DNA from: a virus
Length of the DNA: 64,000 bases
Virus record (IMG/VR): IMGVR_UViG_3300045988_019421
Location: 31,999 to 95,998 of that record
Reading direction: 5' to 3' (one strand)
This document shows, piece after piece, positions 29,638 to 63,594 of the stretch. Both the position numbers and the translations under genes were made by a program. Each line of letters starts with the position of its first letter. Position 1 is the first letter of the stretch. The notes beneath the pieces are model-generated. The model made no database searches, had not been told where the DNA came from, and was given only the letters and a program-made list of their open reading frames with translations.

Positions 29638-29663
29638 TGACATTACTTTTATTGCTTAACTCT

Positions 29664-32772: not shown

Positions 32773-33005
32773 GTACTATTAGTTAGAGTAGTAAGTGAGG
32801 GTCGGCTAGCAATGGTCGGCTCTTACAGTATATACATCTCTTTATGGGGGAATAAAAACTACGTCCCACGCTCCTACGCTTTCACAGAAGCCCATCATTG
32901 CATTTTAGTGCCTAACCTTAACTTACTATTATCCGATAGACTTGCGTGCCTCTATGAGCCTTAAAATGCGTCATGTGTATAAAAATGTTTACAATGCGAA
33001 TAACT

Positions 33006-39336: not shown

Positions 39337-41009
39337 GAACAATTAATAATCAACGACCTAAAGCATTTATTGGTGCCGCTATATCTGTTGGTACTCAACT
39401 TATTGGCGGTATTATTGGAGGCGCTAAAAGGCGAAAAGCAGAAAAAGCTGCTAGACTAGAACAAGAACGCCAAGCAAAGTTACAAGCTGCTCAACAACAG
39501 GCTTCCTATATGACTGAAAATGCTGAAAATGATGCTAATGTTTATAAGAATATTAGAAATCAGTTAATGAGAAATGGTGGAAATATCCCCCGTAAAGGAG
39601 TTGCTCCTTTAATTGCCGAAGGTGGTACTGCTATTCCTATTAAGAAAGATTCGTTTCTACTTAAAGGACGTAAACATAATACTGGTGGTATTATAATTGG
39701 TAAAGGCAAGAATAGTATTGAAGCAGAAGGAGAAGAAGTAGTACAAATAACTCCTAAGCAACTTAAAGTGTTTAGTGCTCAACCTATACTTAATGGTAAT
39801 AGTCCTGCTGAATTAGTTCAGAAAGGTGTTGAACCTTCTAAAGTATTTAATGCACAAGAATCATTTAAAGATAGAAATGGTCTTAATGATGATGGTACTA
39901 AAAAGAAAAGAAATATGAGAACAATAACTGGTAAAAAGAAACTAGGTGGTTTGTCTCGTAAGAAAGATTACGGTTCAGATAAGAAACCTTATCCTAGTGT
40001 TAAGTCAAATGATTTTGCAGGTGGTGGACGTAGTTATCCTATTCCTACTAAGGCTGATGCTCGCGATGCTCTTAGATTAGCAGGCTTACATGGTCGTTCT
40101 GATGTAAAAGCCAAAGTATATAAGAAATATCCTGAATTAAAAAATAAGAAAGCTGTATTAGGAATTTTTGGAAGTTTAACTGGTGCTAATCGTAGACTAT
40201 TAGCTCTTAATCAAAATGTTCCTTCTGCCGGTATTACTGCTGGGGTAAAGATTACTAATCCTAGTGCTTCTAGTATTAAGCCGATGAATGTGTCCGCTAA
40301 TAGTGGAAGTAAAGGTTTTAACCTGTTTAAAGGAGTAGATAAAGGAGAAGCTATCAGTACAGGTATTGGAGCTGCTGGAACTTTAATTAGTGGACTACTT
40401 AATAAAGGTAGTATAAATAAAACTTCTGCTCCACAAGTTCCAACTCCTCAATTAGTTGCTCCTGCTAAACTTAAAACTAGTATTAATATAAATCCTCAAT
40501 TATCAGATGTAAGAGAATCTGAACTTAGGCAAAATAAACTAGTTGAAGGAAATACTGCTAGTTCAGTAGCTAGTGTTGCTAGACAACAAAGAATATCTAA
40601 TAATGCTTTAAGTCAAAGAAATAGATTAAGAGGTGAGAAAGAAAATCTTGAAACTCAATTGCAAAATCAAGATGCGATGAATCGTCAACAAGTAGCTTTT
40701 GCAAATGCTCAACAAGTAAATAAAGCTAATAGATTTAATGCTATTTTTAAAGTTCAAACTGCTAATGATAAAATTCAAGCTAACGCTAATAATCGTACTA
40801 ATATAATCGAAGGACTTACTAGTGGAGTTAGAGATTATCAATTAGGTGTAGATAAGAGACGTTCAGAAGAAAATGCTATTGCTGCTATGATGAGTGCTAA
40901 TCCTGAACAAATGGAATTGTTCTTAAAGCTAATGGAAAAGAATAAAGGTAGACTAGGTAATATACGAAGTACTTTATTCAGATGTGGTGGTAAGAAAAAG
41001 ATTGCTTAA
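39333..41009 (+). CDS. Basic, low-complexity protein (possible ejected/cargo protein)
   Basis: 558-aa ORF with an N-terminal hydrophobic/Gly segment, Lys/Arg/Gln-rich coiled coils, and an ATGA overlap with the upstream gene. Confidence 0.55.
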   Translation: MRTINNQRPKAFIGAAISVGTQLIGGIIGGAKRRKAEKAARLEQERQAKLQAAQQQASYMTENAENDANVYKNIRNQLMRNGGNIPRKGVAPLIAEGGTAIPIKKDSFLLKGRKHNTGGIIIGKGKNSIEAEGEEVVQITPKQLKVFSAQPILNGNSPAELVQKGVEPSKVFNAQESFKDRNGLNDDGTKKKRNMRTITGKKKLGGLSRKKDYGSDKKPYPSVKSNDFAGGGRSYPIPTKADARDALRLAGLHGRSDVKAKVYKKYPELKNKKAVLGIFGSLTGANRRLLALNQNVPSAGITAGVKITNPSASSIKPMNVSANSGSKGFNLFKGVDKGEAISTGIGAAGTLISGLLNKGSINKTSAPQVPTPQLVAPAKLKTSININPQLSDVRESELRQNKLVEGNTASSVASVARQQRISNNALSQRNRLRGEKENLETQLQNQDAMNRQQVAFANAQQVNKANRFNAIFKVQTANDKIQANANNRTNIIEGLTSGVRDYQLGVDKRRSEENAIAAMMSANPEQMELFLKLMEKNKGRLGNIRSTLFRCGGKKKIA

Positions 41010-41026
41010 TTATAAATACTATAACT

Positions 41027-43795
41027 ATGCCGATAGATATTAAAACAGCAGGTTATCAAAAGAGGGAGCGGGTTGCCGCTCCTTTAGATGTTTACAATAG
41101 TACGTTAAATACTCTTCAACAGAAACATGATACTGCTATTGAAACTAGTAATCAGATTAAAACATTTCTTGCTAATAAGCAATTAAATGAAGCTGAAAAT
41201 GAATGGCTCGATAACTATTCGAGAGATATTAATGCTCAAATAGAAGCTAGTGCACAAGACGGAAGTTATGCCACTGCTTTAACTGCTGCTAAAAGATTAG
41301 CAGGAGAAGTAGCTAGTAATCCCGGTCTTATTGGTCGTGAGCGTTATCAACAAGAATTTAAGAAGTTCCAAGACGAAGTTACTAATAGCAATGATTATGA
41401 TGGAGATGTTAAGGCTTATACATTGGAACAGAATAAATATAATTATAAAGACCAAGTAGATGAAACAGGTAAAGTAATAGGTGGCAATCAATTCCAACCT
41501 AATTATCGTCCTGTTGAACAAGTAGATTATAATGCTTTGTATCAAAAAGTATTATCTACTGTTGGTGTTGATTCTAGTTCTGGTGAACAACTAGTATGGG
41601 GAGATGCAGAAGGTAATCTTAAAGATGGTCAAGGTAATATTGTTGCTGGTGATGTTCCTTATCTTAAAACAGCTAGTGGTATTCAACAATTATCAGCAGA
41701 TAAGATTCGTGCTGCATTTGAATCTGCTTTGAATGAAACTCCGGGTGCTCGTGCTTCTCTTGAACAAGACTATAAAGTTAATGTTTGGAAAGCTAATAAG
41801 GGAAATAAGAACAATACTGTTACTAGACCTGATGGTACTATCATGTCACAGAAAGAGTTTGAAGAGAACTTATTTGCACCTAGATATGCTGCTTCTGCTT
41901 ATCGTAGAGTTGAAAGTAGAATTAATCCTGAATTAGGATTTAATATATTAGCTGCTGCTCGTAAAGCTGCTGCTAAACCTAAGACTGGTAAAGAACCTGA
42001 TTTACTTCCTTCTTTGGCTACAATTGGTGGTAAAGAAAAAGTAGAACCTGATACTCCTGCTAAAGTACAATCTCAATTAAATACTCTTAATGGACAATTA
42101 TCTAATATGTTTTCTTCTTATGGAATATCTAAATCTCTTCCTTTAGATGAAGCATATAGTAAACTACGTTCAGGTATTGCTAATAATATAACTTTATCTG
42201 ATACTGCTAAGAAACAATTATTGGATGAAGCTAATACCTATTATAGAGGTATAGCTAATGCTAATAATCGTTTAGATGCAATGAAAGGACATCTTACACA
42301 AGAAGAACAATATGCTTCGGAGTTCTTAGGTAAGAGACTAAGTAATGGAGATATGGCTGATACTAATAATCCTATGCAACTAGAATATGCTAATAGAATG
42401 AATAAGTTATTTACTGATTCTAAAGGCAATAGTTTTGATACAGTTCTAGTTAATCCTCTTAATGATAGTAGCAAGGCTGCTATTATATCTAAACTTAGAA
42501 CAGATATGGGATTGACTAATCAAGATGTGTCGTTTAGTAAAATAGGAGATAAAGAATATATTCGTATTAGTAAAGACGCTTATATTCGTTTAGCTCCTGA
42601 AATAGCAGATGTTCTTAAACTTAGTCCCGTAGGATTTACTACTGGTAATAATGCTCCTGAAAAATTTACTAGAAACGATGAAGTTTTCTATGGAAATAAA
42701 GTATATGGTAGTTTAACTACTATGGGTATTGCAGGTTTTAGAGCAATAGGACGAGGTGAAATAACTACTGCTAAGAGTACTAAAGATTCTCCTGCTTACG
42801 TATATGAAAAAGCTGCACAAATGTCTAATGCTGCAACTAAACGTATATCTAAATCATTACCACCTAGTTATGTTGATGTTAATGTATTTGACTTACCACC
42901 TCATGTAGTTGCTACTGGTCAAGGATTAGAAGATGACCAATTAAAGAACTACAATGAAAGAGTAATGAATATGATTAGTATTGCTAATCCTGGAAGTATT
43001 GTTATTAAGAAACGTAATGCCGAAGGAGTTCTTGAACCTGTTGAAGATAGTAGAGAACGTGATGCTATTATGCAAACTATTCAAGCACAAGTTAAGAAGA
43101 AAAACATTAATAATGGCTGGTGCTCATCATCTTCTACGGGGGAATATGGAGTATTCTTAAATATTCCTTATACTCCTAAGACTGGAAAGAATAGTGCTAA
43201 GAACCCTGATTCTGAAATGGAAGAGAGAATACAAAATGCAGTAGCTGGAGATTACATGATTACAGGTGCTATTCTTAATGATGAAATAGAAAGATTCAAA
43301 TCTCTACCTGCTGTTAAAGCAATGGACACTCTTAATTCTATTAAATATAATAATGCACTTAAAAGAAATTATCGTTTATCTGATGCTGAATTTGGAGATG
43401 GAACATGTTCTGCTGTTACTGATGGCGGTAGTTTCTATCAGATATTAGACGCTAATGATGAACCGGTAATTAAGATTACAGAAGGTGAGTTATTTCAACG
43501 TATGTTTCAGAATAATCAAGCTAATGCTATTCTTGCACCTGTTAAAGAGGATATAAATCTTATTAGTACAAGAAACGGTTCTATTGCAAATTCCCCCATA
43601 GAGGAGCAGCAAGTTATTGCTCGTCCTCTCATGCAGAAAGCTATGATTATGGCAGGTGCTACTGGTAATCTTAGAGAACTAGATATTGATACTAAGAGAC
43701 AAGTATTCCAGTTCTTTAATAGAATGTATTCAGGACTTACTGGTGAATCCCCTAGTCAAGTGATACTTAATCAAATGAACGATTTAATGAACTAA
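41027..43795 (+). CDS. 922-aa hypothetical virion protein (possible cargo protein)
   Basis: Large ORF upstream of the two giant ORFs. It contains both an SSSTGE site (43131) and an SPIEEQQV site (43592). Confidence 0.6.
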   Translation: MPIDIKTAGYQKRERVAAPLDVYNSTLNTLQQKHDTAIETSNQIKTFLANKQLNEAENEWLDNYSRDINAQIEASAQDGSYATALTAAKRLAGEVASNPGLIGRERYQQEFKKFQDEVTNSNDYDGDVKAYTLEQNKYNYKDQVDETGKVIGGNQFQPNYRPVEQVDYNALYQKVLSTVGVDSSSGEQLVWGDAEGNLKDGQGNIVAGDVPYLKTASGIQQLSADKIRAAFESALNETPGARASLEQDYKVNVWKANKGNKNNTVTRPDGTIMSQKEFEENLFAPRYAASAYRRVESRINPELGFNILAAARKAAAKPKTGKEPDLLPSLATIGGKEKVEPDTPAKVQSQLNTLNGQLSNMFSSYGISKSLPLDEAYSKLRSGIANNITLSDTAKKQLLDEANTYYRGIANANNRLDAMKGHLTQEEQYASEFLGKRLSNGDMADTNNPMQLEYANRMNKLFTDSKGNSFDTVLVNPLNDSSKAAIISKLRTDMGLTNQDVSFSKIGDKEYIRISKDAYIRLAPEIADVLKLSPVGFTTGNNAPEKFTRNDEVFYGNKVYGSLTTMGIAGFRAIGRGEITTAKSTKDSPAYVYEKAAQMSNAATKRISKSLPPSYVDVNVFDLPPHVVATGQGLEDDQLKNYNERVMNMISIANPGSIVIKKRNAEGVLEPVEDSRERDAIMQTIQAQVKKKNINNGWCSSSSTGEYGVFLNIPYTPKTGKNSAKNPDSEMEERIQNAVAGDYMITGAILNDEIERFKSLPAVKAMDTLNSIKYNNALKRNYRLSDAEFGDGTCSAVTDGGSFYQILDANDEPVIKITEGELFQRMFQNNQANAILAPVKEDINLISTRNGSIANSPIEEQQVIARPLMQKAMIMAGATGNLRELDIDTKRQVFQFFNRMYSGLTGESPSQVILNQMNDLMN

Positions 43796-43798
43796 GTT

Positions 43799-46700
43799 AT
43801 GCCAAATATATTTGATGATATATCAGTAGAAAAAGCTCCACTAACTAGTGGGGCTAATTCTGTTAATATGGCTAATGATGTTCCTACTGTTACTAAATAT
43901 AAACCTGATGTTGCTGCACAGGGCGACTTTATGTTTCGTAATCTTACAGGTAAAGAAGTGTTTACTGGTACAGAGGAAGATTATCATTCATTAGCTAAGT
44001 ATGGTGCTGAACCTAATAGATATCAAAGTAGAGAAGAATTAGAAACTCTACGTGCTAAGAATCAATCAGCTTGGAAACAGGCAGGTAATGCTTTAGGACA
44101 AACTATTGGTACTGTTATTGGTGATACTGTTGGAGGTATGGGTATGCTAATAGATTTAGCTACTGCCGGATTATGGGATGATAAACCTTTTAGTAATCCT
44201 ATTACAAGAGCTGGTGATACTATATCTGATTATGTTCGTGACGATTTATTTCCTATATATCGTGAGAACCCTGATAAAGCATTTGATATGAATGACTTTT
44301 CAGGTTGGTTTTTTAGTCAAGTTCCTAGTATTGCTAGTTCTCTGTCTTTAATGATTCCTGGCACTCTTCTAACTAAAGGAGTTGGAGCTGTTGGTAAAGG
44401 AGTTGCAGCATTAGGACGTAGTAGTTCTAAAGTAAGTCGTGCAATGAATTGGGCAAAAAAGGCTACTAAATTAGATAATGTATATCGTGCTAATAGATTA
44501 AAGATATTAGCTAATGACGGTATTACAGCTATTGGTATGCGTTTAGGTGAGAATTATCAAGAAGCTCGTGGTGTTGCAGAACAGATAGAAGGTGAAGCAT
44601 TGTCTCTATTTACTGGAATGTCTGACGAAGAGTTTCAGAATTGGTTAGATAATAATCCCGATATTGCAAATGAGACTAAAGGTAGAACTAAAGAAGAAGC
44701 CGCTCTTATAGTTGCAGATAAGGCAGCTATGCGTAACTTTGGTTATAACGCAGGTAACGTATTCTTTGATTTCATGCAGTTACGTGCTGTTAATAAAGCA
44801 ATAGGACAAGTCAATCGTGCTATTACTCCACGTATTCGTTATTCACAGAATCAAGCTCTTGATAGAATAGCTTCTACTGGAATTGAATCTACTAGTCAAA
44901 CACTTGGACAGGCAGCTAAAGGAACTATTAAAGATTTCGCAGGAAAGATAAATAGACTTATTAATTCTAGTGAGAATCTTTTGTTATCTGAATTATCAGA
45001 AGGTATTGAAGAAGCAATAAACTACGTAGGTCAAGAAGAAGGTATTTTATACGGTCGTTATTTATTAGGTCAAGCTGGACAATATAATGGCGCTGTTTCT
45101 ATGGATAGAATAGAGAAGTACTTACAGAATCCTCAATTATATAATGCTGCACTTTGGGGAGTTATTGGCGGTATTACTTTTGGCGGTACTATGTCAGCCA
45201 TTAATAATCGTAAAGGTGGTAATGTAGAAGAGAAACAACGTATTGCTGAAATAAATGGTCGTGAACAGGTATTCAATGAGTATGCTCGTCAAATGCAGAT
45301 TATTGATAATGGTGAAAATCCATATCAAATAGAACGTGATGCTAATGGTAATCCTATTACTTATTTAGATGACGGTACTGTTAGTCAAGACCCAACAGTT
45401 GGTACTACTCGTTATGCTAAGATTAGTCCCGAAGAACAAGAAGATTTACGTGCTGCTGCTAAAGAGAAGTTTACTACTACTCTTACTTTAAATGCTATTC
45501 GTTCAGGTAATTATGAACTACTTGAAGATTATATTGAAGACCCTAGACTAAAGAAGAAACTAGTTGATTCAGGTCTTGTAGATGATGCTGAATACGATAG
45601 AGATACGCAAGAATTAAAGAAAACTATGCGTACTGTTCTTGATAGATACGTTAATTATTCTACTGCATTACGAAGTGCTAATATTGATGATGCTTTACTA
45701 GATGTTGCTATATCAGAGAATATAGTTAATGCACAAGAAGCGGACTTATTAAATAAACGAGTAGAAAGACTTAATACTATTCAATCTCAATTAGAGAATA
45801 GCATACCGGCTATTAATGAAGTTCTTGACCCAATGGCTAAGAATCGTATGCAATTAGGTATATTAGAACAGTATCGTAGAGAAGTAATGTCTACTTATAA
45901 TAGTTTAAAGAATAGTAAAAATCCTTTAGATAGAGCACAAGCTAGTCAATATCTTGATTTATCACGAGTAATCGAATCTAAGGTTACAGACTTACGAAGA
46001 GGTTTAAGTCCTATGGAAAGTTTGTTCCTAGATAATGTTCGTAGTGTAGAGAATATTGCATTAGGAATAGAAGGTAGCGAAGAACAGAATAACTTAATCA
46101 AGAAACAAATAGAAGAACTTGATGAAAATGATGTGGCTCTGTTTAAACAGGCAGGTAAAGACTTTAGTCTCGGTACTCTTGCTAAACAAGTTCGTAATAT
46201 TAATTCAGAGTATATGGATAATATGGGACAGATACTTCTTGATGAAATTCGTAGAGATAATTATCGTTCTCGTATTATTACTACTAATGAACAAGCTAAG
46301 GAATTTGAAGATACTCGTAAGAAAGAATTAGAAGATGCAGCTAAGAATCTAGTTAAGTCAGCAAAGAAGAATCTTAATGACTTTGTTAATATGGCTAATG
46401 AAGAAGAGCTTGGTAATCTTGAGAAAGCACTAGATAATGCGTTTACTGATGAAGAAAGTCAGAATACTAGCAATAAGAGTTTATCTAATGCTGTTAGTAT
46501 TTTAACTAATTCAGAGAATGGTAAGAAAGATATAGCGTCTTTAAGAGAAGCTATTACTAAGAGAAGAAATAGTCTTGCTGCACAAAGTCAGGCACAGCAA
46601 CAGAATGGGAATAATCAGCGACAAGACTCCTCTACGGGGGAAGCGAGGAGCGAAGCGACGAGGCAAGAAGAACCAGAGGTTAAGCCTATTCCAAAACCTA

Positions 46701-49700
46701 AACCAAAGACTGCTAAAGAGAAGAAGTTAAAAGAGACATTAGATAAAGTAGTATCTAAAGCTAATTCAGGTGTTGTAAATAAAGCTAATATTAATAACTT
46801 AGAATTTACAATAGTAAAACCTTTTGCTAGTTTAGGAGATGTTAGTAGAAAACCAGTTAAAGTAAGTGCAATAGATGTACGTGTTAGTAAATTTGGCAAT
46901 GTTAGTATTGATGGAATGGATACCAAAGGTAATATCATTGCTGATGTTACTATTGATGAACTAAATGCCGCTATTGCTATCGGAGATATTACTTATGTAG
47001 ATACTAGTAAATCTGATGAATCTGCTCCTGCCGATACTAACGTTCTTGAATCATCTATATCTGATAATGACTTAGAAGGTCAACGCCAACGTATAGAAGA
47101 AATAAATCTAATTATAGATTTATATAATCAGATACAAGGTAATCAGATAGAAGGTAAGACATTTACTAGTCTTAATGATATGATGGTTTATTTACAACAG
47201 TTGAATCCTAAAGCTGTTAATTTGTATAATGATATTAAGATTCTAGCTAATCGTCAAATAGTAGATGGTAAGATAGTTAATGTTGATGAAGAGATTAAAA
47301 CTCCTTCTGATATTATACAAGAAGCAAGTAAGACTTTAGATAAAGCTATTGCAGAGAATAAACAGAATACTAAAGATAATGGTTACTTCTTTAATTTAGT
47401 TAATTTAAATGATAGTAAGGTTTACTCTCGTATCGGTCAGTTAAAGACTAATAATACAGTAAATGTAGAACTAGATGAAAATGGTAATCTTATTGTTAAG
47501 TCTCGTGGAATTAAGATAGGTGAGTTCCCTAAGATTGGTTATAATAATGGTAATGTTGAAGTTATGAATCAAGGTTGGAGATATACTGTTAAGAACGATA
47601 GTATAGATTTCATAACTCAACTTCAATCTATTATTGCTAGCGAAGAACCTGCTGCTAAAGAATTTGTACAACTACTTAATAATATACGTCGTCTATATCG
47701 TGTTCGTAATAATCCCGAAGTTGAGGGAACATTTGGACATCAGCTTAATGCTTTACAAGAGAATGTTTATTGGAAGAATCTAACTAGTTTGTTTGGTGAT
47801 ACTCAAACTAATCTATTAGATAGGATTAAACATCTTAATAATATTATATTCTTTAATAATGCTCTTAATGTTAATCAGTCTAACTTTAGTACCATTGTTA
47901 ATGAATCGTTGACTAATTGGATGAATAAACTCAAGAAGTCTTATATTGACATTAATAACTTAAAGTCCTCTATTAGTAATACTAAATCTAAAAAGAAACG
48001 TTTAGTTGTTGGTCGTACAAGTTCAGGTAGTGTTATTTATGCTAGAGATAAACAAGGTAATCCTATATATCGTAAGTTCGGAGATGTAGCTACTAGTGAA
48101 GCTACTGACGGTTATCGTCTAATAGTAGGAGTTGATGGAGGAGTTGCTGATATTAAATCTAATAGTATTATTGCCGCTAGTCGTATTCCTAGAGGTGTGG
48201 TTGGTATGACTATTAAAGATTCAGAAGGTAGACTTATCGCTGTTACTAGTCGTGAGAATACTATGAGTAATAGTGAAACAGAAGCTACTGAATACACTAA
48301 GAGGTTTAATGAAGGATTAGATAAGTTATTCCATTCATTAGTAGATGCTACTCTGCAAGGAAATACTGACTTACATCAACAACTATTAGATGAAATATCT
48401 AAGTATGTAGGTAAACAAAAAGCTCTTTATGGTTATGAAGTTGTAGGTCGTGCATTTCGTCCTCTTAATAAGATTGGAGCTACTATTTACTTTAACGTTG
48501 CTGATAGAAATGTAGCATTTGCTATACCTGGTGAAACTAAACCTAGAAGACTTATGGCTCGTATGCCTAATGGTTTTGTTCCTACTAATAATCATGGTAA
48601 CTTTAGCACTATGATGGAAGGAGTATATGCTACACTAACTCGTAATGTTATTAATTCAGCTATTCGTGGTGAATCTAATTTATTTAGAATAGTAGACGGT
48701 AAACTACAAGCTAAGATACCTAATATACTTCAAGATGAATGGATGGACACAGGTTACAGTAGTTATGAAGAGTTCGTAGCTAAAGACGGAGTATTAGTTA
48801 CAGACTTAGGTAATGTTACTGACAGTAAAGGCAATATTATTAGTAACTTTAATTATGTAGGAGATGTATATAATCGTAATATTACTCTTATGAATCCTAG
48901 TCGTAGTGCTGGTCGTACTAACGCGGCTGACGCCGCTGTTTCCCCCATAGAGGAGCAACAAGTTGTATCTCCTGTTGCTACTCCTGACCCACTTGCTAGT
49001 CAAGATAGTGCTCCTCAAGTAGGTACTCTTATGGAAGTTGCGCAAGCTAATACTAGTAATCCTAATCTATTATCTGTTATTTCGGCATTAGAATCTGCTG
49101 GCATTGCTCTTAATCCTGATATTGAAATAGTAGGTGAAAAAGGTAGATTTGCAGGAATAGTTGCTGGTGGTAATACTATTACTCTTACTAATAGATTCGA
49201 TACTCTTGAACCTGAACGTAAAGTACTTACTCTTATACATGAAGGTGTTCACTATCTACTTAATGATGAACGTGCTAATATAGAGCAATCATTTGGTGAC
49301 CTATATGATAAGTTTAGTAGTTTTATTAATCAGGATTCTGCTTTAGTAGAAGAATACGGAAGATTCTTAAATAGTGATAAACCTAGAAGCGTAGCTATTG
49401 AGGAATTTGTAGTTGAAGCTATTACTAATCGTACATTTGCTAGATTACTTGCTAGGATTAAATATGATTCTAAAACTAATACTGAATCTAATAATCTATT
49501 TACTAAGATTGTTGATGCTCTAGTAGAGATTATAGGTAAAGTTGGTAATATAGATAATACATTACTTGGTGAAGTTCGTAATCGTTTATCTACTATTGGA
49601 TTAGAAACATCTGATACAGCTAGCACTACAAGTACTGTTCACGACGATGTATTTGATAGAGCAGAAGAAGATACAGGAGTTCCTACTAATGATGTTTTTG

Positions 49701-49858
49701 ATATTCCTGATATAGACCTAGACTTAGATAGTGCTATAAGTGATAACTATCGACAAGTCGATAACTTCGATAGTTTAGTGAAAGGTTTGAATAACCGTCA
49801 GAAGGCTATTGTGAGCCATTTGTTTGACACTGGTGAGCTTAGTTTTGTATGTAGCTAA
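43799..49858 (+). CDS. 2019-aa giant virion protein with a C-terminal HExxH (zincin-like) motif
   Basis: In-frame CAT GAA GGT GTT CAC (HEGVH) at 49238-49252 within VLTLIHEGVHYLLNDE. Long coiled-coil middle region and N-terminal hydrophobic segments. Confidence 0.6.
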   Translation: MPNIFDDISVEKAPLTSGANSVNMANDVPTVTKYKPDVAAQGDFMFRNLTGKEVFTGTEEDYHSLAKYGAEPNRYQSREELETLRAKNQSAWKQAGNALGQTIGTVIGDTVGGMGMLIDLATAGLWDDKPFSNPITRAGDTISDYVRDDLFPIYRENPDKAFDMNDFSGWFFSQVPSIASSLSLMIPGTLLTKGVGAVGKGVAALGRSSSKVSRAMNWAKKATKLDNVYRANRLKILANDGITAIGMRLGENYQEARGVAEQIEGEALSLFTGMSDEEFQNWLDNNPDIANETKGRTKEEAALIVADKAAMRNFGYNAGNVFFDFMQLRAVNKAIGQVNRAITPRIRYSQNQALDRIASTGIESTSQTLGQAAKGTIKDFAGKINRLINSSENLLLSELSEGIEEAINYVGQEEGILYGRYLLGQAGQYNGAVSMDRIEKYLQNPQLYNAALWGVIGGITFGGTMSAINNRKGGNVEEKQRIAEINGREQVFNEYARQMQIIDNGENPYQIERDANGNPITYLDDGTVSQDPTVGTTRYAKISPEEQEDLRAAAKEKFTTTLTLNAIRSGNYELLEDYIEDPRLKKKLVDSGLVDDAEYDRDTQELKKTMRTVLDRYVNYSTALRSANIDDALLDVAISENIVNAQEADLLNKRVERLNTIQSQLENSIPAINEVLDPMAKNRMQLGILEQYRREVMSTYNSLKNSKNPLDRAQASQYLDLSRVIESKVTDLRRGLSPMESLFLDNVRSVENIALGIEGSEEQNNLIKKQIEELDENDVALFKQAGKDFSLGTLAKQVRNINSEYMDNMGQILLDEIRRDNYRSRIITTNEQAKEFEDTRKKELEDAAKNLVKSAKKNLNDFVNMANEEELGNLEKALDNAFTDEESQNTSNKSLSNAVSILTNSENGKKDIASLREAITKRRNSLAAQSQAQQQNGNNQRQDSSTGEARSEATRQEEPEVKPIPKPKPKTAKEKKLKETLDKVVSKANSGVVNKANINNLEFTIVKPFASLGDVSRKPVKVSAIDVRVSKFGNVSIDGMDTKGNIIADVTIDELNAAIAIGDITYVDTSKSDESAPADTNVLESSISDNDLEGQRQRIEEINLIIDLYNQIQGNQIEGKTFTSLNDMMVYLQQLNPKAVNLYNDIKILANRQIVDGKIVNVDEEIKTPSDIIQEASKTLDKAIAENKQNTKDNGYFFNLVNLNDSKVYSRIGQLKTNNTVNVELDENGNLIVKSRGIKIGEFPKIGYNNGNVEVMNQGWRYTVKNDSIDFITQLQSIIASEEPAAKEFVQLLNNIRRLYRVRNNPEVEGTFGHQLNALQENVYWKNLTSLFGDTQTNLLDRIKHLNNIIFFNNALNVNQSNFSTIVNESLTNWMNKLKKSYIDINNLKSSISNTKSKKKRLVVGRTSSGSVIYARDKQGNPIYRKFGDVATSEATDGYRLIVGVDGGVADIKSNSIIAASRIPRGVVGMTIKDSEGRLIAVTSRENTMSNSETEATEYTKRFNEGLDKLFHSLVDATLQGNTDLHQQLLDEISKYVGKQKALYGYEVVGRAFRPLNKIGATIYFNVADRNVAFAIPGETKPRRLMARMPNGFVPTNNHGNFSTMMEGVYATLTRNVINSAIRGESNLFRIVDGKLQAKIPNILQDEWMDTGYSSYEEFVAKDGVLVTDLGNVTDSKGNIISNFNYVGDVYNRNITLMNPSRSAGRTNAADAAVSPIEEQQVVSPVATPDPLASQDSAPQVGTLMEVAQANTSNPNLLSVISALESAGIALNPDIEIVGEKGRFAGIVAGGNTITLTNRFDTLEPERKVLTLIHEGVHYLLNDERANIEQSFGDLYDKFSSFINQDSALVEEYGRFLNSDKPRSVAIEEFVVEAITNRTFARLLARIKYDSKTNTESNNLFTKIVDALVEIIGKVGNIDNTLLGEVRNRLSTIGLETSDTASTTSTVHDDVFDRAEEDTGVPTNDVFDIPDIDLDLDSAISDNYRQVDNFDSLVKGLNNRQKAIVSHLFDTGELSFVCS

Positions 49859-49878
49859 TTAAGATAAGCCTAGAGACG

Positions 49879-49940
49879 AAAGTCCCGTAGAAAGCCTAAG
49901 AATGAGCCATTCTAAAGCCGCCTACGGGACTTTTCTGTTT
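49879..49940 (+). terminator. Long stem-loop plus U-tract (probable terminator/structured RNA)
   Basis: AAAGTCCCGTAG (49879-49890) pairs with CTACGGGACTTT (49922-49933). The 31-nt loop carries an inner hairpin GAATG-AGC-CATTC. It is followed by TCTGTTTT. Confidence 0.55.
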
Positions 49941-50027
49941 TCCCTATCTTACTATCGAGACGCTATATAAAATGCGAATTTCGGCAGAATTTTGCGGTCT
50001 ACGGGCGTCCGTCAGCCTTCGGAACGT

Positions 50028-53000
50028 ATGGTTTCGGACTATTCGATAAATATATTTGATAGTGTTGATAATAATGCTATCTTTGATACTGTTAGTAATT
50101 ACTTAATTAATAATATAAAGTATATGAGTTGTACTCCTAGTAATCCTAAATTAGATAAGCTATTAGAGCTTACTAATAATGATGTTAGAAAGTCTACCGA
50201 ATATCTTGCTACTATCGAAGATACTAGTTTTCGTGAGTGGTATCAAGAAAAGACCGGTAGAGATTTCAATGAAGAGAGTATTGATGCAAACACTGTTAAT
50301 GCTGTTATAGCATATAATAACAGAGAGACGATTAATACTCAAGATTATGTTCAGAATGTTCGTACTTCACGAACCGGTGTATTTGGTAATGATATAGCAA
50401 AGGAAGACCATGCTATTAATATTCTTAGTACTATTTATCTAAAGAGCCAAGGAAGTATTCGTAAAGCTCTTGCTAATAGAAAACGTAAAGGTGAGAAAGA
50501 AGTTCTAAAGGATAAAGCCGGTAACGAGTTAAGTCCTCAAGCTGCTGTAAAGTTAACTATGATTACTTATCTTAATCGACATCTTAAAGAAAATGATAAG
50601 AAACTTACGCAAGAACAAAAGGCTTATATCGGTACTATTATTCGTAATCTTTATGATGGTGGTAATTATAACCGTAATGAGTTATTTGATATTGTTATTA
50701 ATTCACCCGAAGTTATTAGTCTTAGCAAAGAGTTTGGTATAGATACTAACGAGGATTATGAAACTAATGACGATGCTAAAGAAGGAAGTGAACAAGATAG
50801 TCGCCAAGAAGACCCTGAAACTATTGCCTCTTTACGTGCTGATTGGTCTGAATTAGCCGACCAACGTAAAGACATTGATAAGAATGTTAGTAAAGAAGTA
50901 AAAGAATGGTTTGCTCGTTTGCCTAAAACTAATAGTAATTCTTTTATTAATGAAAAACCTGATACAGCTAGTGATACTTATTCAGGTATAGCTGAAAGTG
51001 TTGGATTCTCTAGTTCTTTTAAAGCATTGAATAATTATGGTAACTTCTCTAGTGTTGAAGCTATGGTAGAAAGTTTCCATACTATTGCTGAAAGATTTAA
51101 AGAAGTATCTCATTTAGAATATGCTGCTCGTCTACTAGAAGATGAAGCTAATGTTCAGATAAGAAATAAGATATTTACTCAACTAAAACAATCTATTTGG
51201 GAACGTAATGAAGTAATTCAAAGTGCAGATGGTTCTAATGTAGTGACTAAAAATCGTAATACTTTCCCTAAACTTAATCTGCAAAATAAGATACTTAATA
51301 GTTTTGATTCTCTTGTTCATAATCCTTCTATTATGAATGGAGATGTTGCAGTATTAGAAGAACTTAAAAATAGATTATCCACATTAAACAATTCAGATAC
51401 AAATGAAATACAAGAAATCTCGGAAGAGCTTGCGGCAATCTTTAATAAATATAACTTCGGCATCAATAGGCAGGGTGTTATTAACTACATTCGTAGCTTC
51501 GGTGATAGTCAACTTTCTAATATCACTAGTCTTGTCAACGATTTGCTAGAATTTAATAAAGTTGTAGCTAATGCGTCTAATATATTAAAGATAGATAATG
51601 AAGCACAACGTATATATTATGCAGGTGAATATAGTAAAGCTAAGAACGATGAAGAATATACAGTAGTTCCATTTGATAAATCTCAACTACAATATAAAGG
51701 TGGTTATGCTAATAATATAGCTAATCGTATATCTGATAGATTTAAAGACTATCAAATAGTAGATTCTGAATTTAATAGTATTAATGCAGAGAACAATCTA
51801 GTTAGTGATATTCTAAAGAATAACTATATTAGTAAATTCTTTGAAAGAATTAACGATAATCGTTATAATGATAATCCTACTTCTAACGTTGAACTTCGTG
51901 ACTATCTAGTAAAGTTTACTAATATTCCTCAATATCAATATAGTAATATACTTATTGAGAAAACTCTATCTAATGGTAAAGTAATTCCCGGTCTACTCCG
52001 TCTCACCGACACTGGTTACGAACTTACTGAATATTATCGTGAGTTTGGTGCACAGTTGTATAATGGTGTTAGTAATGAAGTTACAGGAAAGGCTAAATCT
52101 TATAAAGATATTAATGCTCTTGAATGGGATATTATTACTCTGAATGAATACGCTAATAATGGAGATAACTACGAAATGGCTAAAGGAGTTAAGAAATCTA
52201 AGTTCTTTACCCAAACTCCTTCTGACGCTCCAAAGACTTTCGTATTCAATAGCTACAAGTTAGATATTAATGATTTATTTATTAGACAAACAACAGGTAG
52301 TGAAATAATATTTGAACAATCTTCGTCTGAAAACTACAATGAAAGAACCAATATTAATGCAAACGCAGATGTAACAATAGCGTTTGCTATGGACTTTACG
52401 ACTGCTGGCGAAAAGGTTACAAAGAAGTATGTAGAAAACAATAATAAATTGTATATCCCGATTGATATGAAAAATCTGAAAGGGGTAACAATAGAAGAGA
52501 TAGCAGATAAGATTATAGATAATATAAATAAAAAATATAGTAGTTTATTTCAAAGAGATATAAGTATAAATATTGCAGGTAATGGTATATATACTTTTGA
52601 AAGATATAATATAAACCAAAATAGGATAGATTCATTTATTTATAATGTTCTAAGAAATGTTATAAATAGTCCTAAATTAAATGTTAAAGTAAATCTAATA
52701 AGAAGTGGAGGACAAACAGGTGCAGATGAATCAGGTGCTAAAGCAGGTAAACAGTTAGGAATAAAAACTATTGTATTAGCTCCAAAAGGCTATCGTTTTA
52801 GAAGAAGCGATAATAGAGATATATTTTCAGAAAGTGAATTTAAATCAAGATTTGGAAAATTTAATTCAAGTTCTGTTACATCTATAAATCATAATCATCC
52901 TATATATATTGCTTATGCTAACATCTATGCTAAAGAACTAGCAGAAATGGCACAAGCTATTAACTTCTTATTCGAAACTACTGTTGAGAATGGAGTAGTA

Positions 53001-56000
53001 ACTATTGTGTCTGACGAAAATGGTAAACCTAAGATAAAAGAAGAGTTTAAAGATTTACGTAAATCAGAAGCTAGACTTAATTATCATTATCGTAAAAGTA
53101 TTCTCGATAGTAATGGCAATCCTACTGGTAATGTATTTAAATTTAGAAGTTTACTTATTGATAAAGTCAATAAGATTGACAACTATAAATATAGTAGTAG
53201 TGAGATAGCCAAAAGAGTAGATATGAACTGGTTATTCGAGGAAGGAAGCGTATTCTCGCTTCTTTACGGGGGAAAGAATAGTGAAATATCGCTAATACAA
53301 GATGAGAACGGAGAATATAATATTAGACTTACTGGAGGACTTCGTAATTCTGTATATAACTATATAGATAACTACATTAATTATAGAATACAAGAAGCTA
53401 TTACTAAATACAGTTCTGATAAAGAGTTTGTAGATAAGTATAAAAATGCTAGTCAAGAATCATTCAATGCTTTCATTTCTGAAATGGTTCTTAATTATGA
53501 GATTCAATATAATAATCTAAATGATATATTCTTCGGAGATGAAGCATATTATAAAGATTCTCGTGATACTATTAAACGTAATAAAGAATACCAAGCCGGA
53601 GGATTAGCTTATGCAGGATATGATTTGTATAATGTACAGAAGCATTTGGGAGATATAACAGTAGCTCCTAATAAAACTATTAGTGTAGATAGTAGTTTCA
53701 AATATATTACTCTTGAAGATGTTCAAAGTAGTGGTAAAGTTCTTGATGATTTAAAGAAGCAATTAGATATAGCTAATGTATCTAAAGAAACTAGAGCTTT
53801 TATACTTAAACAGTTCTCTAAAGATAAGTCAGAAGTAACAGATGCTCAATCATTTATTACTCTTGATGAATTTGTTCGTAGAATGTATCTACGTGGAGAA
53901 TATGATAGTTATAAAGATTTAATCGAAGCTCTTTATGACGAAACTAAGCCTATTGATAATGTTAAATTAGGAGAATTATCTAAGAAGATACAAGTTCAGA
54001 AGAACTTCTATTATGACTTAGAAATAGACAATGATGCTAAGTTAGCTAATCCTATTCAGATTAAAAATGCAGAATTTGTACTAATACCTAGATTCTTAGG
54101 TAATAGTGAACTTGGTGCTTTAGCTAAATATATGACTGATAATAATATTGGTCAGGTTAACTTTACTACTACTGAAAAAGCTACTACTAATAGAGTACTA
54201 GAGTTTTGGGATTCTCATGGGAAATTCCCCTCTAAAGAGAAGTTGAAACGGTTTAACTTGGATATCCAAACTAAGTATAAAACTGGTTGGTATTCTAATC
54301 TTTATACCCAACAAGACATTCCTCAACACATGGATGGTGAGAATAAGGCTGGATTGCAGATTGTTAAGAAGCTAATAGATAATATTGGTAATACTCCCGA
54401 AGGTCAATCTCTTATTAAAGATTTCTTTGATAACTTTACTGCTAATATTCAAGATAGTTTTAAAGATGCTGCTTCTCGTATTGGTGTAGAGATTGATGCT
54501 AAAGGTAATGTAGTATACGAAGGTAATCAAGTTAAGATTGATAATAATAAGTTCATATCTCTTATTAAAGACGAGTTAACTCGTAGAGGATTAGATAGTA
54601 ATTATCGTAAGTATGCTGAAATAAATCCTGAAACTGGATTGCCTTATATGCCTACTTGGACTAATCTAGTTCGTAGCAAGATAGAAAATATTGTAAATAG
54701 TATATTTACTAATCGTGTTACTCGACAAGTACTTCCAGGATTTCATGCTAGTCAAGTTTCAGATATTGGTATGACTGAACTATCAGGTCGTAGTGATTTA
54801 AGAGATTTGATGCAATCAAGAGTAGAAGAGAAGCATGGTTATTCTCTTGGTCGTAAACTAACATATCATAAAGACGGTAGTCAGATAGTAGAAATACTGT
54901 TACCTAAATGGATGGTAAAGGCTTATAATACTTATGATTCAGAAGGTAATCTAGTTAATGAAGTTACTCTTGAAGATTTACAATCTGCTGGACTTGATAC
55001 TATGATTGGTTATCGTATTCCAACAGAAGGTAAACAATCAGTAGCAGTAATGAAAGTTGTAGGTTTATTAGATGAATCTCAAGGTTCTACTATTGTTGTT
55101 CCTGATGAATGGGTATTACAAACTGGTGCTGACTTTGATATTGACAGTATCTATGGTATTTATCATACTGCTACATTCGATAAGAATGGTAAACCACAGA
55201 AAGTTGAATATATAGAAGGAGAAGATGATGCAGCAGTAAATAGAAGATATAATAACTATCTGTTTAATAATCTAAGTAAAGAGAATATTCAAGATGCTAG
55301 AGATATTGCAATAGATTTAAGTCAAGAAGGACTAAGCTATGCAGAAGCTTATGAATCAGCTATTACTAAATATGCTGAACAAGGAGGACTTTATTCTAAA
55401 GAAGAATTTAGTAAGCTAACAGTAGCTCAACAGAATACTCGTGATGCTCGTAACAATAAGATAGTAGATACATTTATTAAGATAATGAATCTACCAGTAT
55501 CTATTGGTGAAAACTTATCTTCTAGTAACTTTGAAGATATTAAAGCTGCAAAAGCTAATATCTTTGAAGGTTTATCAGAGACTTATCGTAATATTAATTC
55601 AGTAATTGCTCAAAATTGGTATCGTGATGCTAATATGTCCGGTGCGCGTCTTAAAGCTATTTCTGTTAATCGTGACAACTTCGCCTCTATTAGTAACAAA
55701 GCTAAAACTATTGTTGACGGTGCACACGGTGGTTTTAGGTTTACTTATACATATAGCACAGAGAAAGAAGCAAAAGACGCACAAAGTAAACTAAGAAAAC
55801 GTTTTAGAGATGTAACTAGAAAAGGTAAAGAAGTAACAGTAGACCATAATCAGTTGGGTTGGAGTTACGATAATCTTAATATAGATAATCGTTTGATTAC
55901 TCCTTATTCTTCTGAAACTACTGCTCTTATTCTTGATGGTGTAAAAGAAGGTGGTGTTCCTAATGTAGATTTGTATACTTTTGATGTATATAAATCTATT

Positions 56001-59000
56001 GTAGATTGTGGTGCTAATTATGAAACATCTATTCTATTTATTAATCAACCAGTAATAACTGAACTTATTGCTAGACAAAATGCTAACGATAATGTATTCG
56101 GAGAGACTGGATTTAATCCTCTTATTGGATTAAGACGAGACATGTATGTAAGATTAGCTAAAGCTGTTGGTATTCCTACTAATAGTATTACTAAAAAGAC
56201 TCGTCTTAAAGATGTTAAGAAAATGCTTGAGAGTAGAGGAATAGAGATTAACGAAGATGAACTTCTTGAAGAAGGAATAAAAGTAACTGAACTAAGAGAA
56301 CATCTTAAAGATGATGTAGAGAATGTTAGTTCTACTAATACAGATAATCTCATATATCAAATTAAAGCGTTAAGAGCATTTGAATATTTTAAAGAGATAG
56401 GCGACCAAATCAATTCCAATATGATGGTTATCACTAGTGATAAGTTTGGTGCTGGTAAATCTGCTAATGAAATAGATAATGTTATTAATCGTATTAATGA
56501 TATTAAGGAGAATAATGTTGGTCGTATAAAAAAAGGTCAACCTGTTCTTAAAGCAGTTACAGAAGAAGGTAACAAGTATCTAATAGATGCTATTTATCCT
56601 AAGACTAATTTCAATACTATTAATGATATTAATAAGGATGAACTAGAATCTGCATATCCTTCTTTATATTATCAGTTAAAGTATAGTTGTATAGCTACTG
56701 AAAAGATTATTCGTGATAGTGAGATATTCAAAACTCAAACACCGCAATTCCGTGAATTAGTTAGTAAGTTTGGTATTCGTAATCTTCAAACTATTCAGCA
56801 GTTAGAGAGTTTCATTATTAATATGAGCCAAGCACAGTCTAACTTTGTTAATACTAATAGATTCATAACTAAAAGTGATAATGAGTTTATACCTAGCTAT
56901 AATATAAATCTTATTAGTAGCCAACAAGATACTCGTGCTAGATTATATGGATATACTGATATAGTAGGTAGTTTCGATATGTCTGATATGTCTGAAAAGA
57001 ACGTAGAAGCATTTATGAAATTATCTCCTGCCAATAAAGTAGCATTGATTCAAAGATATACTTCTGATAATAATCTATTTAAGAATTTAAATGTTGAGTA
57101 TAAAGGTCGTCGTAATAGTTATAATAGAATAACTATTGTTGATAGTACTATATCTACTGAATCTCAATATCAAATGTTCCGTAATGCTTGGCATAATAAT
57201 AATCCATTTATTAAACTTGCTACTATGGATTTGATAAGATATTCTATGGTAGTAGAAGGTTATAAATTTAAAGGTGGTACAGTTAGTAAAATTATTCCTG
57301 TTGAATTATTATATGGACAAGATACTGGTATTGATTCTGATAATGGAGTTTCTTCAGCTACTAATATTATTAATGATTCAGATAGAGCTATTAATAGCAT
57401 GATTCAATATGGTAGTGAGACAGGAACTTATGAAAGAGCTAGCAATGATGCGGCAACTATTGAAAAGTTACGTGACTTATTCTTTAGAACTAATCCTAAT
57501 AATCCTGATGTATTAGTATTTGAGAATAAGAAGTATAAAGAATCCAATAAGATAACATTTAATAGATTAGATGTTGGAAGACTTAGCTTTAAAGAAGCTC
57601 AAGAACGCGGAATGATTACTGGTAGTGAGAATAATCGTAGGTATCGTTATTATGCTAAGACTAATGATAACAATAAAACTCTGCGATTATATAAACTAGT
57701 ATATTATAACGATACTGTTTATATGTTACCTACTAATCCATTAGAACAGAATGAAATTGGAGAAGTAAGTGTTAATCCTGATAATAATAGAATGTTTCTT
57801 CCATTAGATATATTAGAAGATGTTTCTATTAATCAATATGATGCTGCTTTTATTAGTTCTGTAAATATCGGTATTACTTCTGATACTCGTAAGTTTATGG
57901 TTCTTCCTACTGTATTTGAAAGAGGAGCTGATACATTAATCGAAGAAGTATTTCCTAATAGTATTGTCTTGACTTCCCCCATAAAGGAGCAGCAAATTGA
58001 TACTTCTCGTAAGTACATTGTGGCTATTACCGATAATAATACTCTATTAGAAACTATTGAATCTCTTGATGCAGCTGGTGTTCATGATTATGTAGTTGCT
58101 GCTCCTAATATGAATTATAATAATATTCGTAGGATTATTAATGAACGTAATAATGCAGATATTGCAGCTAAGAGATTACAAGCAGCTATGACTAAGCTAG
58201 ATGCTAATGAAGTTCAACTTAGAAAGAAGAAATCAGATAATTCTGAATCTCCTTATTATGCTCAACTTAAAGCTAGCATTAATCAAACTATTAATGATGT
58301 AAATGTTAATGGTATTGGATTTGTTCCTGTTTTACAAACAGTGATAGACAATACTGGTTTTAGACCCAATGGATATTTCAGATATGAAAAAGAAGGTAAT
58401 GTTTATATCGTTACTAACTTAGGACGTATAACTACTAAATCGGTTAGTCTTACTCCTGATTATTCATATAGTAGAAAAACTATTATTAATAGTGTGTCTC
58501 AACTAGAATTTCCTAGACGCAATGCTTTAACTCAAGTAGTTAAAGAAAATGCTAGATTAGATAAATTCGCTAACAATAATATTATTAGAGTTCAGACAGA
58601 AGAGAACTTTATTAATGAAGATGTACTTGAATCAGCATTAGTAGATAATGATAGAGAAATTAACGAATATATTTCTCGTGTAATTGAAAGTGTTGAGAGA
58701 AGTAATGCTAATGTTGAAGAAGCAGCTCTTAATGATGCTTTCCGTTCATTCGCCTCTATTGACTTACGTTCTAATACAGCTACTAAGTTAAATGATAACT
58801 TACGTGAGCAAGCACTGAAAATCATTAACGGTTATACTAATAGACGTATTGATGATTTCTTATTTGATATTCATAATTTCTATACTACTTATGTTACTAA
58901 TCCTGATGGTACTTATAAACTAGACGAAAATGGTAATAAGATAGTAATGGAGAAATGGGGTATAACTAATAAGAAGTTATTCGACCGTATGTTAGAAGAT

Positions 59001-63102: not shown

Positions 63103-63594
63103 CTATCCATTAGAATATAGTTTAATATATTCAGATATAAACTTATTTCTATCTCCCATGAACATCATATTGTGATTAATGATATAAATATTATTTTTAT
63201 CATTAACAGCTTTAGCAATAAAATTAGCATTTATAAGTTGTTGAATACCATCATTTATTCTAGGTTGACTAACAGATAGTTCTTTTGAAATCTTAGTCTG
63301 ATTCAATACTATCCAATTAGAATTAAATTTAATATTTCTATAAATGTAATTCAGCATAGACAAACCATGAGTCTTTAAGTATCTTAGATTAGACATTCCA
63401 TCAAAATATAATTGCATAAAACTACCAGTATATCTTACCTTTTCATCTTTGATTAGAACAATATCTACTCCATATTTATTAGCTATCTGTTGAAGCTCAT
63501 CAAAAGCATTATTACTATAATCTTTTGGATTAATATTGAAAGGAAATATAGTAGGTTTAATAAGACTACTATCAACATTGACATTAGTTCCCAT
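63103..63594 (-). CDS. wHTH DNA-binding protein, RepL-like replication/regulatory protein (first gene of the opposite-strand module)
   Basis: 163-aa ORF. Its HTH-like segment LNQTKISKELSVSQPRINDGIQQLINANFI resembles the RepL/wHTH pattern. Iteron-like repeats lie immediately upstream. Confidence 0.45.
   Translation of the reverse strand: MGTNVNVDSSLIKPTIFPFNINPKDYSNNAFDELQQIANKYGVDIVLIKDEKVRYTGSFMQLYFDGMSNLRYLKTHGLSMLNYIYRNIKFNSNWIVLNQTKISKELSVSQPRINDGIQQLINANFIAKAVNDKNNIYIINHNMMFMGDRNKFISEYIKLYSNG

Follow-up and report, generated by a model that had tools for sequence, protein, structure and literature searches.

The 64,000-nucleotide stretch of viral DNA analysed here (positions 31,999 to 95,998 of the IMG/VR virus record IMGVR_UViG_3300045988_019421, referred to below as the window) originates from a crAss-like Bacteroides phage of the genus Jahgtovirus (Intestiviridae), and contains in each of three consecutive giant genes a 24-nucleotide sequence that encodes the peptide SPI(E/K)EQQ(V/I). 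The original prediction, made from the sequence alone, regarded this peptide as a possible maturation-cleavage or capsid-targeting signal shared by packaged proteins, and named as an alternative that the motif matters as DNA and yields the peptide only incidentally. It is this alternative that the evidence supports: the three 24-mers are very probably sense copies of a dispersed, strand-asymmetric DNA motif, in which the DNA signal is selected and the peptide is a by-product. The motif is a DNA-level signal under strong purifying selection and obeys strand-aware placement rules, and each Intestiviridae genome examined contains approximately 25-32 copies of its own version of it, C4-(C/T)-G-T-R-R-A-G-G-A.

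The genes that carry the three 24-mers lie at the end of a rightward gene order that runs from TerL through the structural genes to the three giant genes, all on the + strand: a 922-amino acid (aa) gene (41027-43795), a 2019-aa gene (43799-49858), annotated in relatives as an RNA polymerase (RNAP)-associated protein fused to a zincin protease, and a 4338-aa gene (49992-63008), which is the RNAP by annotation of relatives. Focal copy 1 (43592..43615, +; core TCCCCCATAGAGGAG and tail CAGCAAGTT) is located in the 922-aa gene, focal copy 2 (48941..48964, +) in the 2019-aa gene and focal copy 3 (57975..57998, +) in the RNAP gene, in each case in sense orientation. They show 0, 1 and 2 mismatches to the first copy, with 0 such matches expected from shuffled sequences, and share a single reading register, TCC CCC ATA GAG/AAG GAG CAR CAA RTT. 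As read from the open reading frames (ORFs), this yields SPIEEQQV in the 922-aa and 2019-aa proteins and SPIKEQQI in the 4338-aa protein, as originally described. The shorter SPI versions that had been reported alongside them are also real (YSPIGK in TerL at 2386, TSPIKV at 14468 and DSPIE followed by a stop codon at 29623), and so is the location of site 2, which corresponds to residue 1715 of the 2019-aa protein, 99 aa ahead of the HExxH motif of this protein (HEGVH, residues 1814-1818) and within a variable, poorly conserved linker.

The core of the motif is T-CCCCC-N-TA-R-AG, usually followed by GAG. With up to two mismatches allowed, CCCCCATAGAGG has 17 matches on the two strands of the window, against 0.95 expected, and the pattern CCCC-N-TA-R-AG occurs at 17 sites of the window, against 0.2 in shuffles, and at 28 sites in each complete genome of the two closest relatives, Bacteroides phage crAss002 and the uncultured phage cr107_1. 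Nearly all C5 runs of the window, on either strand, continue as N-TA-R-AG. Approximately 20 copies are present in the window, on both strands and in intergenic as well as intragenic (sense and antisense) positions, and the 28 sites of crAss002 comprise 7 intergenic, 10 genic sense and 11 genic antisense copies that are found in structural and replication modules alike. Because there is one site per ~3.3 kb overall, one sense copy per giant gene is roughly what the spacing predicts. Each giant gene also holds an antisense copy, absent from the original prediction: 43128..43143 (-), 46626..46641 (-) and 53258..53273 (-).

Selection on the nucleotides is evident from codon use. The window has a GC content of 32%, and the peptide is spelled in the rarest codons of this genome (TCC for Ser, CCC for Pro): TCC accounts for 3.7% of Ser codons, CCC for 5.1% of Pro codons and GAG for 18.7% of Glu codons. 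The probability of finding TCC CCC ATA GAG GAG given the peptide SPIEE is 2e-5 per site, and other SPI/SPV tripeptides of the window are written with TCT or AGT and CCT. In a population sample of 51 IMG/VR relatives with 86-99% aa identity, motif positions -2 to +9 (T, C5, N, TA, R, AG) are ~100% conserved, save N (0.67) and R, and this conservation is equal at sense, antisense and intergenic sites. The GAG, the QQV tail and the flanks are at the regional background of 0.8-0.9, with variation at the third codon positions of GAG and tail. Focal copy 1 exemplifies this pattern, as its core is invariant and its tail varies at synonymous positions. The synonymous-site comparison that had been proposed to separate peptide from DNA conservation thus points to a DNA signal: the core is frozen including its synonymous positions, while the QQV tail drifts synonymously. 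The freezing of rare codons points to selection at the nucleotide level.

In terms of the encoded peptide, the core simply spells S-P-(I/V)-(E/K)-E in one of the two registers that remain open, since the third register, CCC CCA TAG/TAA, contains a stop codon; the R positions toggle freely, which produces the I/V and E/K swaps. Sense copies of crAss002 use the S-P-I register in 8/10 cases and P-R-K-G in 2/10, and antisense copies of the window give a mirror peptide on the gene strand: SSSTGE in the gene77-like and 922-aa genes, DSSTGE in the 2019-aa gene and CSFTGE in the 1287-aa gene. Two observations weigh against a purely incidental peptide. The 8/10 preference of crAss002 may reflect a secondary, co-opted peptide role, and the QQV residues of site 1 are kept through synonymous change, as occurs in any coding sequence.

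In light of these data, it is very unlikely that SPI(E/K)EQQ(V/I) is a maturation-cleavage or capsid-targeting signal cut at I-x-E by a prohead-type protease or by the 2019-aa zincin. I-x-E fits the consensus of T4 gp21 sites, and I-(E/K)-E fits it in turn; the three copies share one register, the E following I-x is mostly kept and, as just described, the site 1 QQV survives synonymous change. The proteins would also be suitable substrates, as homologues of all three, which are virion cargo or RNAP-associated proteins, have been detected by mass spectrometry in crAss001 virions. However, the likeness to L/I-x-E sites and capsid-targeting sequences ends where conservation of the peptide independent of codon choice is considered, as TCC and CCC are invariant across the 51 genomes, and the same DNA is kept in antisense and intergenic copies. 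The peptide is not confined to packaged proteins either: translated motif sites of the crAss002 replication module read SSPIEEQES in a Gam-like protein, PSPIKERKS in gp55 and HSPIKEYQK in a helicase, proteins not known as packaged, and degenerate forms occur in TerL. Moreover, cr107_1, which is 96% identical at the nucleotide level, has SPIEELQV, SPIEGQQV and SPIKGQQI at the equivalent sites (E to G and Q to L changes). As for the protease, none of the prohead type is annotated in four relatives including crAss002, Rudgehvirus and p-crAssphage, Pfam and PHROGs searches with the three giant proteins and the head-region ORFs tested returned no informative match and no protease, although the 2019-aa protein does have its HExxH motif. 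As for cleaved termini, the paper on crAss002 contains no proteomics, and cleavage of cargo proteins goes unmentioned in the crAss001 structural atlas. Since the nucleotides, rather than the peptide, are conserved and no test supported a peptide signal, there is no ground here to seek a cleavage site. A caution for annotation follows, namely that a short peptide that recurs in a phage proteome can be the trace of a motif in the DNA.

Comparison of orthologues across the family leads to the same result. Rudgehvirus jaberico, the giant proteins of which are 41% identical to those of the window, contains 25 copies of TTGnTGTAAnnnCCCCTGTARAGGAG. Its 2019-aa orthologue has a copy at the matching offset (5141 vs 5144 nucleotides), where TTPVEE aligns although the rest of the linker does not. 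The position of site 2 is in fact kept in all relatives examined, including divergent IMG/VR loci, from 58% down to 26% aa identity, and the peptide found there tracks the motif version of each genome (TTPVKESSP, NSPVEEQQVN, TSPVKEQET, TTPVEEVIS, NSPVEESIA, SSPVEGSLH). In p-crAssphage the orthologous copy, 42688 (-), reads PPVEDG, so that P-(I/V)-(E/K)-(E/G/D) is all that remains of site 2 across the family. Conservation of sites 1 and 3 reaches no further than clades at 55-58% identity, where site 3 has other tails, and the Rudgehvirus orthologue lacks site 1, a further point against a peptide signal. Peptide residues beyond those fixed by the DNA core are not conserved past the genus: the orthologue comparison that was to reveal a conserved peptide found that only residues dictated by the core persist.

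The QQ(V/I) tail is confined to the genus. At one divergent locus (L085) sites 2 and 3 have a different common tail, GGAATCTTC (ESS), and in every genome tested there are sub-families of copies with common extended 3' tails: 71228 (+), 89658 (-) and 33099 (+) in crAss002, 86025 (-) and 90268 (-) in Rudgehvirus (13/14 positions), and 44953 (+) and 95745 (+) in p-crAssphage (13/14 positions). Because these sub-families include intergenic and antisense copies, the 24-nucleotide triple is itself to be seen as one DNA-level sub-family. Such sub-families most plausibly arose by short-patch gene conversion between copies.

The motif changes with the phage lineage. The version of p-crAssphage (Carjivirus communis) is GGTTWGACYCCCCGTRGAGGATGGA (32 sites), that of cr8_1 is CTCTAGC(C/G)CCCCCGTAAAAGGTATGTA (26 sites) and that of cr110_1 is GAGACCCCCCGTAGAGGAT (26 sites). 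Steigviridae carry a different dispersed motif, CTCCAGAAG, on both strands, with 27 sites in crAss001 (loci L240 and L241; 0.36 expected) and 23 in Kehishuvirus tikkala (loci L248 and L249). In crAss001, successive CTCCAGAAG copies switch strand in 20/27 cases (P 0.003), and 11/14 sense copies read x-P-E. Two of these phages have the same host species, Bacteroides cellulosilyticus, and yet different motifs: CTCCAGAAG occurs 23 times in tikkala and once in Rudgehvirus, and the Rudgehvirus motif 2 and 25 times, respectively. The motif therefore follows the phage lineage and not the host, and its reader is thus probably phage-encoded. This leaves it extremely unlikely that a host factor targets the motif, whether as a host Chi site or through a restriction or defence system or a regulator. 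Its density (~1 per 3.3 kb) and polarity recall Chi, and Gam-like nuclease inhibitors are encoded by these phages; besides the two phages sharing a host, however, a scan of 185,579 species genomes speaks against a host target, as among the matches listed there were only scattered single hits in unrelated taxa and no enrichment in Bacteroides. A full-text search of about 8.3 million papers with six 11-mer motif strings retrieved no relevant paper, and the literature searched on crAss promoters, crAss002, virion RNAP promoters, gp66 and crAssphage methylation motifs contained nothing on the motif, which appears to be part of a system undescribed so far.

The arrangement of the copies is not random. 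Spacing is more even than expected (coefficient of variation 0.62-0.68 vs 0.95, P 0.006-0.03), and neighbouring copies, pooled over six genomes, tend to be inverted the closer they are: 21/21 at less than 500 bp (P 5e-7), 24/27 at 0.5-2 kb (P 2.5e-5), 34/45 at 2-4 kb (P 4e-4) and 30/67 beyond 4 kb (P 0.84). Copies on the same strand are kept apart, the smallest same-strand gap being at least 1.4 kb in 14/14 strand sets and typical gaps ~3-10 kb. Tight opposite-strand pairs (130 bp or less) are in excess, with 12 observed vs 3.4 expected (P 2e-4), and 10/12 of them are convergent. Approximately 75% of copies are intragenic, half of them antisense, and of the single intergenic copies 9/11 run opposite to the genes on either side. 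In the late structural block, from TerL to the tail fibres, antisense copies make up 5/5 in crAss002, 4/4 in Rudgehvirus, and 6/6 and 7/9 in cr110_1 and p-crAssphage, respectively; outside this block copy orientations are mixed. Finally, four-gamete incompatibility of pairs of single-nucleotide polymorphisms flanking the motif is 0.56 vs 0.33 at random positions (P 0.024; 6 sites), which is only suggestive of raised recombination at motif sites. A candidate recombination breakpoint at 39588 was rejected, as the apparent edge of homology sits inside a segment that is 71% identical to cr107_1.

This arrangement is the basis of the functional reading favoured here, with slightly less than even confidence: the motif would be a polar signal acting in cis, recognised on the DNA by an enzyme of replication or recombination that the phage encodes and that moves along one strand. 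It could serve as a strong site for priming or initiation, or as a self mark on phage DNA that modulates a nuclease or recombination, in the manner of Chi or of uptake sequences. Each strand would need one copy every few kilobases and, because of this need, same-strand copies would be spread out, while the tight convergent pairs found at module junctions and beside RepL would be two-sided elements that function like origins.

Two such pairs are present in the window. The first, 24523-24538 (+) and 24558-24573 (-), lies between the 2626-aa gene and the next gene and forms an imperfect hairpin (DNA fold -13.9 kcal/mol, z -5.6). The second, 63864-63879 (+) and 63898-63913 (-), is a pair of long-form copies flanked by GCTCGC repeats and forms a near-perfect hairpin (-21.6 kcal/mol, z -8.6) ~270 nucleotides upstream of a gene for a RepL-family replication initiator (63103..63594, -; 163 aa; Pfam PF05732, 25.8 bits vs a cut-off of 20.3). 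Both RepL genes of p-crAssphage likewise have a convergent pair 263-535 nucleotides upstream, and others have predicted an origin in the region that holds one of these pairs. The AT-rich stretch that separates the RepL start from the convergent pair of the window contains two direct repeats of ~22 nucleotides (TTATACAGTTTTGCGTATAA; 63629-63650 and 63672-63694), noted by eye, which look like iterons or operators. At the RepL position crAss002 has only a 71-aa ORF, and the RepL junction is therefore a variable accessory region. RepL as a universal reader was rejected, as none of the ORFs at this junction in crAss002, Rudgehvirus, cr8_1, cr110_1 and crAss001 is RepL. The idea that two copies bound a ~2-kb terminal repeat in p-crAssphage was also discarded: 93667 (+) and 95745 (+) are 2078 bp apart, which does not match, nor do the other pairs compared, the terminal repeat of NC_024711 having been reported as 1853 bp. 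For crAss002, the published description provides no coordinate of a pac site.

Several points weigh against a polar signal read by a replication or recombination enzyme. Its function is deduced solely from the arrangement of the copies. Taken genome by genome, the alternation of strands is of modest significance only (P 0.003-0.05), and cr110_1 shows none (P 0.69); the recombination signal comes from 6 sites only and is possibly inflated by homoplasy or conversion, and the link of RepL to origins is partial, given its absence at the junction in crAss002, Rudgehvirus, cr8_1 and cr110_1. The core of ~12 nucleotides exceeds known primase sites (3-5 nucleotides) and Chi sites (5-8 nucleotides), and same-strand repulsion could result from selection against deletion-prone direct repeats without any polar reader.

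This last point is central to a rival explanation, in which an architectural or packaging protein that organises the genome binds the motif in either orientation and same-strand copies are spread only because close direct repeats are prone to deletion. Even spacing is what such a site would show, the copies are placed without regard to the direction of transcription, the inversion of neighbours fades as they lie further apart, as deletion avoidance predicts, and genes for RecT and a PD-(D/E)XK exonuclease are present. Nevertheless, a 12-nucleotide repeat anneals poorly over kilobases, so that selection against direct repeats 2-4 kb apart would be very weak, and neither the surplus of tight convergent pairs nor the 10:2 bias towards convergence is accounted for. 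Furthermore, IHF-like labels in these genomes are annotation only, and no binding protein is known. This explanation is accordingly considered improbable.

Transcription offers another rival. The motif could be a promoter or initiation site for a phage RNAP, for example the virion two-barrel RNAP, that generates sense and antisense transcripts, among them primer RNAs or antisense RNAs across the late structural genes. Its layout, with a C-rich binding part, TA-R-AG and a purine-rich start, is that of single-subunit phage promoters; the core resembles the T3 promoter CCCTCACTAAAGGGAGA and, like the promoters of T7, T3 and SP6, changes specificity between lineages, being asymmetric, 12-26 bp long and lineage-specific. 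Some copies lie 50-200 nucleotides upstream of gene starts, pairs at divergent junctions point at both operons, and the copies of the late structural block are almost all antisense. In addition, the crAss virion RNAP has no known promoter motif in the literature searched. However, the upstream, gene-oriented location of those promoters is not found here, as most copies are intragenic with about half antisense, and the single intergenic copies that oppose their flanking genes (in crAss002, Rudgehvirus and p-crAssphage) point the wrong way. No T7-like single-subunit RNAP is annotated in crAss002, cr107_1, Rudgehvirus or p-crAssphage, only the giant two-barrel RNAP. Moreover, signals of the usual kind stand where expected: the IHF-like gene is preceded by a -7 box of host type (TAtaTTTG), and the RNAP gene is followed by a hairpin that resembles a terminator. 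N4 early promoters extrude hairpins, and the inverted pairs of the phage motif can do likewise; there are, however, 3 hairpin promoters at one genome end in N4 and ~30 dispersed half-sites here. In the phage phi14:2, early transcripts made by the virion RNAP have no common motif and middle and late genes use the host RNAP. Taken together, a promoter role is unlikely. The motif was also rejected as an intrinsic terminator, as a partner arm is missing from single copies, no T-run follows the pairs and Rfam gave nothing.

Among the closest parallels of the motif are the uptake signal sequences (USS) of Pasteurellaceae and the DNA uptake sequences (DUS) of Neisseriaceae. These have asymmetric cores of 9-12 nucleotides with weaker flanks, occur on both strands in lineage-specific versions with a spacing more even than random, and form hairpins as intergenic inverted pairs; inside genes they occupy tolerant regions in preferred registers, giving rise to recurrent by-product peptides. 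The phage motif agrees with them as an asymmetric oligomer over-represented on both strands, with 25-32 sites in each of 6 genomes, in its lineage-specific versions that follow phylogeny and in its inverted pairs that form intergenic hairpins (-13.9 to -21.6 kcal/mol). In contrast to USS and DUS, it belongs to a lytic phage genome and not to a competent bacterium, it is less dense (~1 per 3.3 kb vs ~1 per kb), and no uptake machinery or reader is known for it. Neither same-strand repulsion nor inverted neighbours are known for USS or DUS.

Chi sites of RecBCD and AddAB are likewise polar, over-represented oligomers at similar density that are read on one strand by a translocating enzyme, and a hint of raised recombination is seen at the phage motif. 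Unlike Chi, the phage motif has a longer core (~12 vs 5-8 nucleotides), is not oriented with the direction of replication, forms tight convergent pairs that have no Chi counterpart, and shows neither host specificity nor, among the matches listed, enrichment in Bacteroides, its versions being bound to the phage lineage. The homopolymer run of the motif, beside a 3' element that may be recognised without being copied, would suit the logic of primase sites, such as 5'-GGGTC of T7 gp4 and 5'-CCC of Aquifex DnaG. Like the motif, primase sites are specific to one strand and have to recur along both strands, and a DnaG-family primase is encoded by these phages; the known sites are only 3-5 nucleotides long and far more frequent, and priming at the phage motif is a candidate role only.

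It is possible, though rather doubtful, that these properties add up to a system of self-marking in Crassvirales, consisting of ~25-32 lineage-specific polar words per genome that would be spaced on each strand, convergent at origin-like junctions and read by a replication, recombination or nuclease machine of the phage. If so, it would represent a new class of cis-acting genome signal, either a phage-borne analogue of Chi or USS or a defined code for priming or initiation. A replication, recombination or initiation signal, if that is what the motif is, would provide a concrete handle on how the DNA of crAss-like phages is copied or protected, which is almost unexplored. Independently of function, the motif is conserved in the crAssphage family, the most abundant human gut viruses, constrains the coding of essential genes and gives lineage-specific sequence tags.

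The other copies of the window differ in strength and context. Within the giant genes, the antisense copy of the 922-aa gene (43128-43143; ...GTAGAAGATG) is a weaker one, encodes the SSSTGE mentioned above on the gene strand and is lost in ~20 of 52 relatives. That of the 2019-aa gene (46626-46641) is a long-form copy with a GC-rich (GCTNC)n head and is orthologous between genera, as it corresponds to 44953 (+) of p-crAssphage. GC-rich pentamer repeats of this kind, (GCTNC)n or CGCTTCGCTCC, stand directly 5' of the core in some copies, and were located at 46642-46670 and 63830-63863 of the window and at 44919-44952 of p-crAssphage (L118). The antisense copy of the 1287-aa gene (38624..38639, -; CSFTGE) has its head and GGAGCAG tail in common with focal copy 3 (37 nucleotides, 76%), and its core is kept within a segment only 71% identical to cr107_1. 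In the neighbouring 558-aa gene, a sense copy (39586..39601, +) uses the other open register (IPRKGV), and a sense copy in the tail-tubular gene (34976..34991, +) reads SPLKKS. An intergenic copy upstream of the IHF-like gene (32836..32851, -) is antisense to the flanking genes, and the copy at the 3' end of the 102-aa ORF (29623..29638, +) encodes the DSPIE-stop. Further to the left there are antisense copies in the 1153-aa gene (14243..14258, -), in the 217-aa gene (10033..10048, -; with a C4 run) and in the gene77-like gene (5941..5956, -; SSSTGE), a weaker sense copy at 10672..10687 (+; ACCCCCGTAGAAGG, TPVEGK) and a degenerate sense copy in TerL (2386..2401, +; TCCCCCATAGGGAAG, SPIGKF).

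Regarding the wider context of the window, a 9-kb test segment (41000-50000) is 95.8% identical to cr107_1 and 93.8% to crAss002. Segment 35871-40343, which contains the 1287-aa and 558-aa tail/cargo genes, is strongly diverged from cr107_1 and aligns only partly, with 71% identity; the cr107_1 counterparts of these genes are much longer and the flanking DNA is 83-93% identical, so that a module has been replaced there. Rfam (at the gathering threshold) and tRNA scans of the window produced no matches. The Bacteroidetes-type -7 promoter box TAtaTTTG, spotted by eye at 33083-33090, ~30 nucleotides upstream of the start of the IHF-like gene at 33122, suggests that this block is transcribed by the host RNAP. 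Just past the RNAP stop codon, a GC-rich hairpin (GCCCGAA...TTCGGGC) followed by a T-run, also recognised by eye (63037-63075), resembles an intrinsic terminator; the terminator scan, limited to loops of 8 nucleotides, did not call it, its loop being longer. The longest inverted repeat of the window (5475-5520 and 49898-49943; 46 nucleotides, 74% complementary) joins two GC-rich, hairpin-rich intergenic regions, portal/gene77 and 2019-aa/RNAP, and may represent a shared regulatory or RNA element in opposite orientation.

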